In this document: positions 42,435 through 46,381 of the stretch, one piece after another
How the letters are laid out: the number at the start of each line of letters is the position of its first letter
Position numbering within the stretch: the first letter of the stretch is position 1
DNA from: Candidatus Saccharimonadia bacterium
GTDB taxonomy: Bacteria; Patescibacteriota; Saccharimonadia; UBA4664; JBBRNT01
Assembly (NCBI GenBank): GCA_038230095.1
Contig: JBBRNT010000006.1
Location: 1-63,971, forward strand
Direction: 5' to 3'
DNA length: 63,971 nt
Position numbers and translations under genes: made by a program
The notes under the pieces: model-generated
Databases searched by the model: none
What the model saw: only the letters and a program-made list of their open reading frames with translations
What the model was told of the DNA's origin: nothing

Positions 42435-43043
42435 ATGACTGTCATTGTTGCCGCAAGGACCACCCATCGAGTGGGGCGGAAGCGTGCGGATATCCGGGAC
42501 GCTATTACTATTGCGAGTGATACCCAGCTGACTGATGGCTGGGAAAAGACCACCGGCGCGTATCCCAAGATTTGGGCAGAAGAAAAGCGACTTATCTTCG
42601 GCGCCGCGGGTCTGGTGGCGGCTTGGCAGGCCGTCCAGTACCACGTGACCTGGCCGCACTATGCCGAGACGCAAGACTGGGAGGAGTGGCTCGTCAGAGA
42701 GATCAACCCTTTGGTTACTGGGTCGCTCAGCAACGCCGAGCTGCTACACCGCCGACGTGGTGTAATCGACACCAATCTATGCCTGATCGTGGCTACCGGT
42801 GACAAGCTGGCGTCCATCGACTGTGTGGGTGGCGTGGTGGTCCCGCGGAAGCACTGTGCGGCTATTGGCAGCGGGTATGCCGAGGCACTTGGCAGCCTCG
42901 GCAAAGGCCCCTGGACGAGCGATGATGTTATCCGAGCTGCATTTGCTGCGACCGAGACCAATCTGGGCTGCGGCGCGCCGATCTACTTCGCGACCACTAT
43001 CGACTACGAGATCCAAGAAGCGGATCTCGCTGGCCTGCAATAG
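42435..43043 (+). CDS. Ntn-hydrolase, proteasome-beta/HslV-like peptidase
   Basis: N-terminal M-T-V-I-V-A (Thr nucleophile), ASDTQ, PKI, AIGSG. Confidence 0.75.
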   Translation: MTVIVAARTTHRVGRKRADIRDAITIASDTQLTDGWEKTTGAYPKIWAEEKRLIFGAAGLVAAWQAVQYHVTWPHYAETQDWEEWLVREINPLVTGSLSNAELLHRRRGVIDTNLCLIVATGDKLASIDCVGGVVVPRKHCAAIGSGYAEALGSLGKGPWTSDDVIRAAFAATETNLGCGAPIYFATTIDYEIQEADLAGLQ

Positions 43044-43215: not shown

Positions 43216-45042
43216 CTAGTTCGCGGGACCGCCGCCAGCGTAGTAGATGGGCGTACCCATTTGGAGGAGCTCGGACGGTGTGACAATCTGGTAGCCGGCG
43301 GCGATGGCCCAGTCGAGGATGCGGCCTATGGCCAGAGCTGTCTGGATGTGGCTACCACCATCGTGCATAAGCACGAAGTCGCCATTCTTGATACGGCTCA
43401 TGGCGTGCTGCACCAGCAGATCGGCTGGGACGCGAGGGCTGGTCCAGTCGGATAGGTCCGACTGGGTGAAGAGGTTGCACATGTGGTAGTCCCGCATGGC
43501 CTGGTCATTTAGCACGGACCGGGTCAGGCCTGGCGAGCGGAAGAATGTGACTGGCTGCCCCGTGAGCGCAGTAAGGGCCGCATTGGTCCAGGGAAGCTCA
43601 CGCACATCTACCGCACCGCTGTATTGGTGGCTCCAGCTGTGGTTGCCCACACCATAGCCACGGGCAATAACTTCCCGGGCTACATCGATGAGCGGTGCGA
43701 TGCGCTGGCCAATCCAGAAAAACATGGCCTGGCCTTCTAGTCCACGATCGCGGAAAGCGTCCATGATAATACGGGTGTTCACTGCGTCTGGCCCGTCGTC
43801 GAAGGTGAAGGCCAGAGCCTTCATGCCTGGCGGTAGCTGTACCCCCGCAATGGGCGCTCCTGGCACACAGGACCCCAAGGGGTTGCGTGGCGGGTTGCCC
43901 AGCCGGGTGTCTAGAACGCGGACGGGCGCTGGCAGAAGGCCAGCTACGCCGGTGTTCAAGAACCCAATTCCATCGACGACAACCTGCCCGGTGCGCAAGG
44001 CCTGCACTACAACGCTGCCACCTGCCAAGCTTGATGCAAAGGCATTGGGCGTAGCAAGAGAATTCTGGTAGTTCAGGGTGGAGTAGGTGCCGTCCGAGGG
44101 CTGTGGCCCAATGGCGGCCCAACCGGGACCGGTCATGTCTACAGCAGTAAGCGTGCCCAGAAGGGCACTGGCACCACTTGGAACACTGGGCACGGGTACG
44201 GAGCGAGACTCGCCAGCCGCCAGAGCAGTGCCAGCGCGGGTGTCCAGAAAGCGCTGCGGGCCGCCCGGCAAGAGCTGTACGGCGCTGCCCGCAATATCCC
44301 CTTCCAGGTCTACTACTAGATCGCTGGGATTCTGGGAGACGGTACAGATGGCGCCGTTCTGGATGGGGGCAAAGGCCAGCACGCTGCGCGTGGGCGTGTT
44401 AGCATCCACATTATTGCTGGATGTGGTAGGTGCGGTGGTGCTATCGCACGGGACGACGCTGGTGTAGCCGGCAGCCTGGGGGTTGGTTACCGTCAGGTTG
44501 ACTATGGCCACCGTGGCTTCTGGCCGTACGAGCGAGCCCAAGGGGATTACACGCTTGGCACCGGGGACGAGCTGGCCGGCAGGGTCCGATCTGGAGTCTA
44601 GCACTCTGGCCTGGATCGGACGTATTCCGGGGTCGTTCGTCAGATACGCCGCCACATCCAGTACCACATCGGCACCGGCACTGGCGTATATATCCAGCTG
44701 ACCCGCCGTGCTCAGCCGGAGCAGCGCTAGATTGGCAGCAGTATGGCCACGACCCGTCACATTGACCACCGAGGTGTCTGGTGTGCTGAAAGCGTCACTG
44801 ACGCTCAAGAACCCCGAGCCGTCAGACTCGGTTAAGGTCACATTGGCCAGGACGGCTGTGGCATCTGCCGGGATACCGTTAATACCCGCAATCTGGATGC
44901 CACGTAGGACCTGGCCTGCCCGAATGTGGCCCGGTACGCCATTATCTGCGCCCGTTGCCTGCGGTGTCGTAGCCACCAAACTGGTAGCCACGAGGGCGGC
45001 GGCGGCCAGGGAGGCCCACCAGCCTCGGTGTGTGCTCTTCAT
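43216..45042 (-). CDS. Secreted/surface protein: tandem RxLDTR beta-repeat modules plus a C-terminal NodB/CE4 polysaccharide deacetylase
   Basis: Signal peptide; RVLDSR, RFLDTR, RVLDTR repeats; TFDDGP, GNHSWSH, FRSPG, DLSDW, LMHD. Confidence 0.88.
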   Translation of the reverse strand: MKSTHRGWWASLAAAALVATSLVATTPQATGADNGVPGHIRAGQVLRGIQIAGINGIPADATAVLANVTLTESDGSGFLSVSDAFSTPDTSVVNVTGRGHTAANLALLRLSTAGQLDIYASAGADVVLDVAAYLTNDPGIRPIQARVLDSRSDPAGQLVPGAKRVIPLGSLVRPEATVAIVNLTVTNPQAAGYTSVVPCDSTTAPTTSSNNVDANTPTRSVLAFAPIQNGAICTVSQNPSDLVVDLEGDIAGSAVQLLPGGPQRFLDTRAGTALAAGESRSVPVPSVPSGASALLGTLTAVDMTGPGWAAIGPQPSDGTYSTLNYQNSLATPNAFASSLAGGSVVVQALRTGQVVVDGIGFLNTGVAGLLPAPVRVLDTRLGNPPRNPLGSCVPGAPIAGVQLPPGMKALAFTFDDGPDAVNTRIIMDAFRDRGLEGQAMFFWIGQRIAPLIDVAREVIARGYGVGNHSWSHQYSGAVDVRELPWTNAALTALTGQPVTFFRSPGLTRSVLNDQAMRDYHMCNLFTQSDLSDWTSPRVPADLLVQHAMSRIKNGDFVLMHDGGSHIQTALAIGRILDWAIAAGYQIVTPSELLQMGTPIYYAGGGPAN

Positions 45043-45192
45043 TAGTACCCACTTTCGGTCTAAGGCATGTCAAGGTTGTTCTTACCCACCAAGAAGTGGG
45101 CATATTATTCATTAACTAGAGTAAAAGCGCAAGTATAAGTGCTTTCATATCTTAGTTTTCTGAGCATTACATGGCCTACAACAATTATACTA

Positions 45193-45221
45193 TTGACAAA
45201 ACCCGTATTGTGTGCTAGTAT
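45193..45221 (+). promoter_or_regulatory. Near-consensus sigma70 promoter for candidate ncRNA-2
   Basis: TTGACA-17 nt-TAGTAT with an extended TG. Confidence 0.8.
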
Positions 45222-45228
45222 TAATATC

Positions 45229-45419
45229 AACAAACGATTTCACCTAGAAATCATGCAGACATAGTCTGCTATCTCTTCCGCGAAACCGGCGTTTGCAAAC
45301 CCCTTATCGGCACATTGAGGCCTGGGTCGCAAATCGTACCAGAAAGAACCAGATTCTCGACAGTTATCCGCACCTAAGCGTGCAAGTTTGTTCGAAACCC
45401 CGCTATCCGCGGGGTTTTT
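45229..45419 (+). ncRNA. Candidate stand-alone ncRNA (RNA-2)
   Basis: Strong promoter, no usable ORF, several stems (AACAAAC/GTTTGTT, GCAGAC/GTCTGC, ACGATTT/AAATCGT, GCAC/GTGC), terminator AAACCCCGC-5-GCGGGGTTTTT; next gene is convergent. Confidence 0.65.
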
Positions 45420-45430
45420 GTATTCACTAG

Positions 45431-45922
45431 CTATGAGTGCCCTCGCTCAATTTCCAGCGCCCGCTGAACCAGCCTATCCCCTATCGGACCCCAGTCGAAG
45501 TAGTCTTTGACCGTAGTGGGGTCGATGAGCTTAATCTGTGTGATACCGCCTGCCGGATCAGACACAAAGGGCCCAAAGGGCCGTACACTGCACCAGTACC
45601 GTAGCTGGTAGATAAGCCGGCCACCAGGCAAGACGATCTTCTGGTAACCGATAGGCGTGGCGTCGAGTACCTCCATATTGGCCTCCTCCTCTAGCTCGCG
45701 GTCCAGAGTCTGGCGAAAGCTCTCGCCGGGCTCAATGGTGCCACCCACGAGCCCCCAGGCATGTTTATTGCCGCCAAAGCCAATGAGCAACTGCCCTTCA
45801 AAAAAACAGAGCCCGTACGCTTGGGTACAGAGCTCCGCGGGCAAATCGGTAAATGTGTCTGAGTCGTGGTACTCGACAGAGTGGCTCGCCCCATCGTCCA
45901 CAAATGAGCTTGTGATAATCAT
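45431..45922 (-). CDS. NUDIX hydrolase
   Basis: LVGGTIEPGESFRQTLDRELEEEA. Confidence 0.9.
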   Translation of the reverse strand: MIITSSFVDDGASHSVEYHDSDTFTDLPAELCTQAYGLCFFEGQLLIGFGGNKHAWGLVGGTIEPGESFRQTLDRELEEEANMEVLDATPIGYQKIVLPGGRLIYQLRYWCSVRPFGPFVSDPAGGITQIKLIDPTTVKDYFDWGPIGDRLVQRALEIERGHS

Positions 45923-46060
45923 GATCAACGCTCCCTTAGGGGAGTAATCATAGCTGGTTTAGTGCTCTAAATCTAGTGCCAAGCCGTACCGCACCTACCA
46001 GGAGCAATCTTAGAATACTACCTAATGGCCCAGCTGGGTTGGGTTTTGTATTGGCAAGTA

Positions 46061-46092
46061 ATCGGGCGGGGAGATTGCTCTCCCCGCCCGAT
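46061..46092 (-). terminator. 14 bp hairpin downstream of the small ORF
   Basis: ATCGGGCGGGGAGA-4-TCTCCCCGCCCGAT. Confidence 0.6.
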
Positions 46093-46165: not shown

Positions 46166-46381
46166 TCAGATGCCAAAGTACCCACTGCCCGTGGAGGGGT
46201 TGATTTCAGTTCTTTCACCTTTGGCATTGTACGGCGAGACATAGCCACCTGAGCTACTCGAACTGCCACGCCGATCGCGAACGCAGTCGGGATGGGGGCA
46301 CGTGGCTTTGCTGGCGGTGTGACCGGGACGAGGCTTGCTCGTGCTCTTGCTCGTACCAAATAGTTCGGATAACCAGGACAT
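46166..46381 (-). CDS. Small hypothetical protein (71 aa)
   Basis: TATAGT -10 box, SD AAGGTGG, CPHPDC motif, downstream hairpin. Confidence 0.5.
   Translation of the reverse strand: MSWLSELFGTSKSTSKPRPGHTASKATCPHPDCVRDRRGSSSSSGGYVSPYNAKGERTEINPSTGSGYFGI

Follow-up and report, generated by a model that had tools for sequence, protein, structure and literature searches.

A candidate family of stand-alone structured small RNAs adjoining a NUDIX gene in Patescibacteria

The genomes of Patescibacteria (CPR) are tiny and densely packed. The stretch of DNA analysed here in its entirety (the window; 63,971 nt from a Candidatus Saccharimonadia bacterium) has a GC content of 55.5 % and a very compact gene map. 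What, then, is housed in the gap of 388 nt between the polysaccharide-deacetylase gene and the NUDIX gene listed in Table 1? A first-pass annotation made from the sequence had proposed that a strong promoter drives a stand-alone, structured noncoding RNA from this gap. A candidate RNA gene (45193-45420) is indeed present, and we give it a probability of roughly 0.8 of being a genuine structured RNA gene. This reading draws on compensatory changes in hairpin H2 of the RNA, seen in a fragment from a second metagenome (X2), and on the existence of RNA genes of the same design on three other contigs (L104, L105 and L106).

The arrangement of the neighbouring genes is as originally described: the gene to the left is divergent from the RNA gene and the one to the right is convergent with it, and no gene on the same strand lies 3' of the RNA. 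The plus strand is without an ORF of at least 70 amino acids until far downstream of the RNA gene. A cis-regulatory leader or riboswitch has a gene downstream on its own strand; here, the next gene, encoding the NUDIX protein, is on the minus strand, and the early conclusion that the RNA is not a leader therefore stands. Housekeeping genes are located nearby (Obg, RNase H, LeuRS, Ddl, a Mur ligase, and YceG), and a 71-aa ORF is also among the neighbours. All named relatives of the NUDIX protein of the window are from Patescibacteria. The window sequence is present in one sediment metagenome run; look-ups of RNA-seq and DNA runs returned only this source run and X2, with no RNA runs among the matches.

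Table 1. Features of the RNA gene and its surroundings (positions are those of the window)
Feature	Position	Strand	Remarks
Polysaccharide-deacetylase gene	43216-45042	minus	divergent from the RNA gene
Diverged direct repeat of 45374-45438	45060-45122	+	local alignment z = 3.7; 6/1000 shuffles as good
Sigma-70-type promoter	45193-45221	+	-35 TTGACA 45193-98, 17-nt spacer, -10 TAGTAT 45216-21
Predicted transcript, about 192 nt	45229-45420	+	from putative +1 A45229 to terminator U-tract
P1, 5' strand, AACAAAC	45229-45235	+	pairs with 45386-45392, probability 0.55-1.0
Hairpin H1, GAUUUC-ACCUA-GAAAUC	45236-45252	+	stacked on P1; probability 1.0
Hairpin H2, GCAGAC-AUA-GUCUGC	45255-45269	+	compensated pairs in X2
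Linker with CU-rich CUCUUCC (45273-79)	45270-45288	+	thermodynamically ill-defined; no stable predicted pairing
Central three-tier hairpin	45289-45337	+	common to L104-L106; within the 71 nt identical in X2
Helix A, GCGUUU with AAA-U-CGU	45289-94 with 45331-37	+	U45334 bulged
Helix B, ACCC with GGGU	45299-302 with 45324-27	+	
Helix C, GGC with GCC	45309-11 with 45320-22	+	
Small hairpin He, AGAA-CCAGA-UUCU	45345-45357	+	in minimum-free-energy and constrained folds; ensemble probability about 0.3
Hairpin H6, GCAC-CUAAGC-GUGC	45370-45383	+	probability 0.87
P1, 3' strand, GUUUGUU	45386-45392	+	pairs with 45229-35
Intrinsic terminator	45395-45420	+	AAACCCCGC-UAUCC-GCGGGGUUU then UUG; 9-bp stem, 5-nt loop, U-tract
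NUDIX gene	45431-45928	minus	convergent with the RNA gene

The near-consensus promoter reported at first, TTGACA-17-TG-TAGTAT, is present at the left end of the RNA gene. It agrees with the consensus at 10 of 12 positions and has, in addition, an extended -10 element, TG at 45213-14 (TGc, 45213-45215), in a spacer that ends in TGTGTGC. The only other TTGACA-17-TG site in the whole window (51685-51657, minus strand) is a normal gene promoter. The hexamers taken alone are weak evidence, as promoter counts across the region are no higher than in shuffled sequences (2 found versus 2.1 expected). The 9-mer TGTGTGCTA in the spacer occurs exactly only once in the window, is missing from the window's other TTGACA-17-TG promoter, and is common to the promoters of the L104, L105 and L106 RNAs, where it is found at the same offset. 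The geometry of the promoter, together with a closing stem (P1) that starts exactly there, points to A45229, 7-8 nt past the -10 element, as the +1 position. The RNA would be transcribed from about this position and, going by its promoter, is probably abundant. The intrinsic terminator that had been noticed after the RNA is strong and GC-rich; it begins 3 bases past the closing stem and stands back-to-back with the stop codon of the NUDIX gene (45431). It was unlisted in one scan and was seen in a second scan of the window and in the predicted fold.

The 192-nt predicted transcript folds with a free energy of -56.9 kcal/mol, compared with -43.5 ± 3.8 kcal/mol for dinucleotide shuffles (z = -3.55; none of the 200 shuffles was as good). 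The pairing between the 5' and 3' ends that had been spotted by eye amounts to 7 bp, and the several hairpins claimed along with it were recovered at 45236-52, 45255-69 and 45370-83, with ensemble probabilities of 0.86-1.0. The middle 100 nt of the molecule is thermodynamically ambiguous and is not a two-strand bubble. Enforcing the helices of the central hairpin on the window RNA costs 0.8 kcal/mol relative to the minimum-free-energy fold. The apex of this hairpin is located at the midpoint of the molecule, and its conserved unpaired bases are UUAUCGGC, CGC and CGUAC.

A diverged copy of the 3' end of the RNA sits just upstream of the gene, which indicates that the locus has been rearranged. 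The repeated segment, of which the window holds just two copies (the upstream one being 63 nt long), spans the end of H6, the 3' strand of P1, the terminator-like hairpin, and the region of the NUDIX stop codon. In the upstream copy the terminator-like hairpin reads CCCAC-CAAGAA-GUGGG; the letters of its stem differ while the pairing is kept. Such an arrangement would result if a unit of about 316 nt had been duplicated in tandem and its upstream copy had later been mostly overwritten.

The X2 fragment, the one close homologue found and a partial one, is a single 151-nt contig of depth 2 from an aquatic metagenome. It covers 45221-45354 and was rebuilt from a table of differences. X2 is identical to the window over 45221-51 and over the 71 nt from 45284 to 45354, and all of its differences (13 substitutions and 5 indels) lie within 45252-83. 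Hairpin H2 reads GUGAGC-AUA-GCUCAU in X2: four of the six pairs are changed on both sides and one has gone from G-C to G-U, with 100 % of the pairs still formed, as against at most 42 % in slid controls. H1 is uninformative in this comparison because it is identical in X2. The linker varies at 45280-83, where GCGA in the window is replaced by CUUC in X2.

X2 also bears on the coding potential of the region. ATG-CAG-ACA-TAG (45253-45264), which the first-pass annotation had given as the only ORF, is the sole ATG ORF in the RNA region; TTG and GTG ORFs of 30-45 aa are present as well, on both strands. In X2 the ATG ORF has turned into ATG-TGA, and a 1-nt deletion at about 45355, read from the unaligned tail of X2 past 45354 after alignment by MAFFT, breaks the frame of the 45-aa TTG ORF. 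The TTG and GTG ORFs gave only sub-threshold matches in Pfam (E 0.046 and 0.12). When the 45-aa ORF was searched among 1.8 billion protein representatives, no relevant relative came up, the sole match being an unrelated, repetitive protein. A small-protein or type I toxin gene was considered and dropped: no conserved ORF with a start signal is found, and the ORFs are broken in X2. As X2 is a single low-depth contig, the evidence from it is thin. Its pattern of change is nevertheless that of a functional RNA and not of the remnant of a CDS. The possibility, raised at the outset, that the region is a decayed CDS in relatives is thus countered by the compensation in H2 and by the frame-breaking indel, and the same two observations, taken with the RNA genes of the same design beside NUDIX genes, uphold the original proposal of a stand-alone structured noncoding RNA and speak against both a leader and a decayed CDS.

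These latter RNA genes came to light in a homologue search. The three closest homologues of the NUDIX protein of the window (P0002, P0005 and P0003) lie on contigs L104, L105 and L106; their amino acid identity is 63 % with the protein of the window and 82-83 % among themselves. On all three contigs an RNA gene of the same design is located about 25 nt past the stop codon of the NUDIX gene, on the same strand and ahead of a LemA gene. The promoter of these RNA genes is TTGACA-17-TGcTATAAT. The predicted RNAs start with ACAAUACUUUU, which pairs with AAAAGUUUG 155-163 nt later, so that here too a closing stem is placed at +1. Their terminator carries compensatory changes, and the L105 RNA folds with z = -4.63.

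The L104-L106 RNAs and the window RNA are alike in their promoter, including TGTGTGCTA, in the closing stem (ACAAxAC ... GUUUG) and in the terminator, in the length of the body (155-163 versus 164 nt), in the central three-tier hairpin with its UUAyCGGC, CGC and RAAnCGUAY bases, and in the homologous NUDIX gene that adjoins them. They are unlike in the number and sequence of the 5' hairpins. H6 is without a counterpart in L104-L106, and small hairpins of differing sequence are seen there, by reading of the alignment, where He sits in the window RNA. The NUDIX gene is convergent with the window RNA, whereas it is co-directional with the L104-L106 RNA, and genomic GC content is 55 % for the window versus 43-46 % for L104-L106.

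Support for a shared core comes from the central hairpin. MAFFT followed by RNAalifold, applied unguided to the four RNAs, finds a common central hairpin. In a fresh MAFFT alignment, 98 % of the cells of this hairpin are paired and 4 pairs are changed on both sides; 1 of 500 shuffles showed pairing as good, and at most 46 % of the cells were paired when the partner strand was slid. Helix B reads GGCC/GGCC, GGCUU/AAGCC and GUCU/AGAC in L104-L106, and all four RNAs retain UUAyCGGC, CGC and RAAnCGUAY as unpaired bases. In L104, L105 and L106 the central hairpin is part of each RNA's own minimum-free-energy fold. Together, the changes in H2 and in the central hairpin argue for selection on structure in both.

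A model of the central domain built from L104-L106 alone (R3) was run over both strands of the 64-kb window (128 kb) with filters off. Its best match, 45285-45340 on the plus strand, scored 13.8 bits, and none of the next nine exceeded 10.0 bits; it has an E-value of 0.22 and is not significant window-wide. It is the only full-length match among the three alignments listed. Taken as a test of one pre-specified locus of 160 nt, the match corresponds to roughly 1e-3, the E-values of the tool being rough, and it is lost under default filters. The full-length covariance model of L104-L106 (R1) did not recognise the window RNA when run against the window, nor did nhmmer find a link between the window RNA and the L104-type RNA. 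In global alignment, the window RNA gave z = 4.8 against L104, relative to dinucleotide shuffles, and 2.5-2.6 against L105 and L106.

The design of the RNA gene is thus common to the two lineages: the promoter is the same, a stem starting at +1 closes a body of about 160 nt, and a terminator follows. So is the central three-tier hairpin, in which compensatory changes are seen and loop bases are kept. In both lineages, the RNA adjoins the 3' end of a homologous NUDIX gene, with differing orientation. That the window RNA and the L104-type RNAs form one family by common descent is, in our judgement, probable. It is made less sure by the difference in NUDIX orientation and by the way in which the relatives were found, namely, by looking beside NUDIX genes, which introduces an ascertainment bias into the NUDIX adjacency.

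The family is rare or fast-evolving. At 80 other NUDIX loci, neither nhmmer nor a model that includes the window sequence (R2) detected such an RNA, and no shared gene order was seen. R2 found no further member over 733 kb of Patescibacteria loci; a weak match in L001 (E 1.6) was set aside because it falls within a coding region. The close homologues of the deacetylase, on L081 and L082, have unrelated upstream DNA without an RNA. Relatives of LemA at 88 % and 97 % identity have two tRNA genes in the slot of the RNA (contigs of the L121 type carry NUDIX, two tRNA genes, and LemA), and those at 80-86 % identity leave no room for an RNA. A scan of metagenome contigs with the pattern TTGCAAACC-N17-29-GGTCGCAAATC returned 21 loci, none of them related, of which 7 represent a protein-coding family matched by chance. 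We read the window RNA and its relatives as an uncatalogued and narrowly distributed small RNA family of Patescibacteria, five sequences of which would now be known.

Do these RNAs belong to a known class? The window RNA matches no Rfam family. At the gathering score, a search of the window with Rfam 15 returned two tRNAs only. When E-values of up to 10 and permissive filters were used on a 441-nt region (45040-45480), only terminator-driven noise was obtained, the best sub-threshold match being rnk_pseudo with 20.1 bits versus the 55 needed, which is likewise driven by the terminator. The Rfam models for 6S, SRP, RNase P, tmRNA and riboswitches all went unmatched, and the L104 RNA has no Rfam match either. 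Likenesses to c-di-GMP-I, ZTP, T-box, SRP, RNase P and Y-RNA that were seen by eye were dropped since Rfam did not match them. A retron ncRNA (msr-msd) was rejected: a terminal inverted repeat is present but generic, and no reverse-transcriptase gene is adjacent. A repeat-array guide RNA (CRISPR, TIGR) was rejected as well, there being no internal repeat families in 45000-45500 and only the flanking duplicate of the 3' end. BLAST against phages and plasmids gave nothing real, two scans of viral contigs gave no matches, and in literature searches no CPR small RNA of such a kind was found described.

Several orphan structured bacterial ncRNAs are known from comparative genomics, the raiA-motif RNA being an example. 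The window RNA resembles such orphans in that it appears to be independently transcribed, is about 200 nt long, has several conserved helices and invariant junction or loop bases, and lies beside one particular gene without being its leader. It is unlike them in having no such match in Rfam 15, in its host (Patescibacteria), and in being known from 5 sequences versus hundreds.

On the reading favoured here, the extended -10 promoter would fire at about A45229 and yield an RNA of about 192 nt, the first seven bases of which would pair with 45386-92. As P1 pairs the ends, the body of 164 nt would be closed into a multi-hairpin junction consisting of H1, H2, the central hairpin, He and H6, and the Rho-independent terminator would end the transcript immediately past the closing stem. 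The RNA may then act in trans, with the central hairpin and its conserved internal-loop bases serving as a platform for recognising a protein or a small ligand, and with a scaffold for stability provided by P1 and the peripheral hairpins. A platform is suggested by the fact that the slowest-evolving part of the molecule is a 49-nt hairpin with two conserved internal loops while the flanking hairpins vary, and it is favoured over a short antisense seed because the longest conserved stretch is structured and not single-stranded. The mechanism is argued from shape and conservation, and a protein- or ligand-binding platform in trans is put forward tentatively, at clearly less than an even chance. 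As a single figure that strikes a balance between the well-supported identity of the gene and the weakly supported mechanism, we would give about even odds.

Other roles have to be weighed against such a platform. A base-pairing small RNA, in which the CU-rich linker CUCUUCC (45273-79) or one of the loops blocks the Shine-Dalgarno regions of its targets and the hairpins merely stabilise the molecule, would agree with a stand-alone gene bounded by a promoter and a terminator. The window RNA, X2 and L104-L106 all contain a CUCUU(C) motif (UCUCUU in L104-L106), which in the window RNA is located in the segment without stable predicted pairing. This role seems unlikely nevertheless: the best-conserved part of the RNA is the 49-nt structured hairpin and not a short single strand, the motif is partly paired in hairpin Ha of L104-L106, and a duplex scan over 70 start regions of the window, a crude one that covers about 7 % of a genome, gave -43.9 kcal/mol, no better than the shuffle mean of -43.8 kcal/mol. 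Decidedly unlikely, too, is sequestration of sigma-70 RNA polymerase by a divergent RNA of the 6S type, with P1 as the closing stem, the central hairpin as the terminal stem, and hairpin-rich segments in place of the bubble. 6S RNAs show little sequence conservation, and models often fail to find them. Like 6S RNA (SsrS, RF00013), the window RNA has a stand-alone gene with a very strong sigma-70 promoter, a length of about 160-190 nt (a 164-nt body in a total of about 192 nt), paired 5' and 3' ends, poor sequence conservation beyond close relatives, and the apex of its central hairpin at the middle of the molecule. The early remark that the size of the RNA is in the 6S range but that no 6S-like rod could be seen proved apt, however. 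No 6S model of Rfam matched the 441-nt region even at E up to 10, the closing stem is just 7 bp long, and no single-stranded bubble is defined. Since H1 and H2, the latter with compensatory support, fold locally beside the closing stem, there is no rod in the fold; rather than a rod with a central bubble, the molecule is predicted to be a multi-hairpin junction with local hairpins supported by covariation.

The position of the RNA beside the NUDIX gene invites two further explanations. In one of these, the RNA and the NUDIX protein are a two-part module conserved in some Patescibacteria, the RNA being a dedicated substrate, a regulator, or a guide; it might, for instance, be highly expressed and carry on its +1 A a non-canonical 5' cap such as NAD, on which the enzyme would act. 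RNA next to NUDIX is the sole gene order common to the window and L104-L106, the other neighbours being different; the adjacency has outlasted a change in orientation, and both types of RNA start with A. A module of this kind, if true, would explain why this pairing and no other survived genome scrambling and an inversion. We regard it as improbable in view of the ascertainment bias mentioned above, the 80 other loci with NUDIX genes of the same family that lack the RNA, the L121-type contigs with their tRNA genes between NUDIX and LemA, and the fact that the NUDIX protein matches the generic Nudix box only. In the other explanation, which appears quite improbable, the RNA works in cis as a sensor: P1 would close an aptamer that controls the terminator, and read-through would produce an antisense RNA across the convergent NUDIX gene. 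The layout is riboswitch-like, with a terminator within 3 nt of a P1-closed body, only the NUDIX gene (on the opposite strand) lies downstream, and RNA and NUDIX adjoin in both lineages. No known aptamer matches, however, and several CAAAC/GUUUG segments could swap partners but form no clear antiterminator by inspection. Moreover, the antisense arrangement is not conserved, as in L104-L106 the RNA and NUDIX share a strand, with the RNA coming after NUDIX and before LemA; the LemA gene, by reading, appears to have a -10 element of its own. Finally, the gap might contain no functional gene, just what is left of a segment that was rearranged or duplicated, or of a decayed CDS, with promoter-like and terminator-like sequences by chance. 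The locus has been rearranged, with the 63-nt diverged copy of the 3' end just upstream, and the distribution among relatives is patchy. Yet 71 nt are identical in another organism, right beside a hairpin with four compensated pairs, and conservation of the central hairpin and the promoter extends over lineages whose GC contents are 55 % and 43-46 %. The ORFs have nothing beyond the sub-threshold Pfam matches and the one unrelated protein given above, and an indel breaks the ORF frame in X2. A relic is, accordingly, the explanation to which we attach the least credence.

In conclusion, the stand-alone structured RNA, possibly with a binding platform at its centre, would add a new family to a familiar class, that of the stand-alone structured bacterial small RNAs. 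For the cultured Saccharibacterium TM7x, a transcriptome preprint of 2022 gives no validated small RNAs (10.1101/2022.03.25.485537). The compact genome of the window spends about 230 bp on a promoter, an RNA of 190 nt and a terminator, from which it is likely that the RNA gene matters to the cell. The structure model, the conserved core and the few relatives provide a starting point for a covariance-model search of CPR genomes. If the family is confined to a few genomes, it would be an ordinary orphan small RNA; if it turns out to be widespread or tied to NUDIX, it would be among the first lineage-specific regulatory RNAs of a mostly uncultured branch of the bacteria.

The uncatalogued RNA genes found beside the closest NUDIX homologues (contigs L104, L105 and L106) all start from a perfect TTGACA-17-TGcTATAAT promoter. 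The L105 gene had been called as a 68-aa protein (1423-1629) by the gene caller. On contigs where LemA is 88-97 % identical (L112, L113 and L121), the NUDIX/LemA slot is occupied, in place of the RNA, by a pair of apparent tRNA genes judged by eye, one of them with a long variable arm. Stable-RNA genes seem to be exchanged at this slot.

Features of the window and of related contigs
Feature	Position	Strand	Remarks
TTGACA-17-TG promoter-like site	window 51657-51685	-	-10 TAGACT; upstream of LysM-CHAP gene 50266-51498
Apparent two tRNA genes	L112 2780-2960; L113 1-170; L121 2235-2420		in NUDIX/LemA slot; by eye
Uncatalogued RNA gene, ~200 nt	L104 9352-9623; L105 1425-1691; L106 about 900-1160		between NUDIX and LemA
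Diverged direct repeat, ~63 nt	window 45060-45122 vs 45374-45438		copies bracket promoter and RNA cassette
Leucyl-tRNA synthetase gene	window 34532-37483	-	NUDIX domain inside
202-aa protein	window 42435-43043	+	weak proteasome beta-subunit/HslV-like match
71-aa ORF	window 46166-46381	-	good AAGGTGG ribosome-binding site; without family match
Perfect 28-nt palindrome CGGGCGGGGAGAttgcTCTCCCCGCCCG	window 46063-46090		after 71-aa ORF

The metagenome pattern of two spaced anchors matched a conserved protein-coding family (L086, L088, L091, L094-L096, L099 and L102) in which TTGCAAACC-23 nt-GGTCGCAAATC is read in frame. This family is unrelated to the RNA; such a chance match calls for caution with two-anchor patterns.

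Besides the RNA promoter, the site upstream of the LysM-CHAP gene is the only TTGACA-17-TG promoter-like sequence in the window. The upstream copy of the direct repeat is the counterpart of the RNA 3' end and the NUDIX stop region, and contains a terminator-like hairpin (CCCAC-CAAGAA-GUGGG). Its opposite strand carries a TTGACA that may be a promoter element of the deacetylase gene. The 71-aa ORF lies in the 560-nt "gap" that separates NUDIX from RNase H; a clear U-tract was not found at the palindrome behind it.

The leucyl-tRNA synthetase is an unusual fusion: directly behind its editing domain sits an inserted NUDIX domain (aa 397-517, E 1e-10). The 202-aa protein scored weakly with Pfam (E 3e-4) and the NCBIfam archaeal proteasome beta model (E 3.5e-4). 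For the N-terminal ~400 aa of the deacetylase (43216-45042, minus strand), the best distant relatives are Actinobacteria-type secreted proteins. The C-terminal enzymes of these relatives are many and varied. Taken together, these relationships suggest a shuffled surface module, possibly acquired horizontally.
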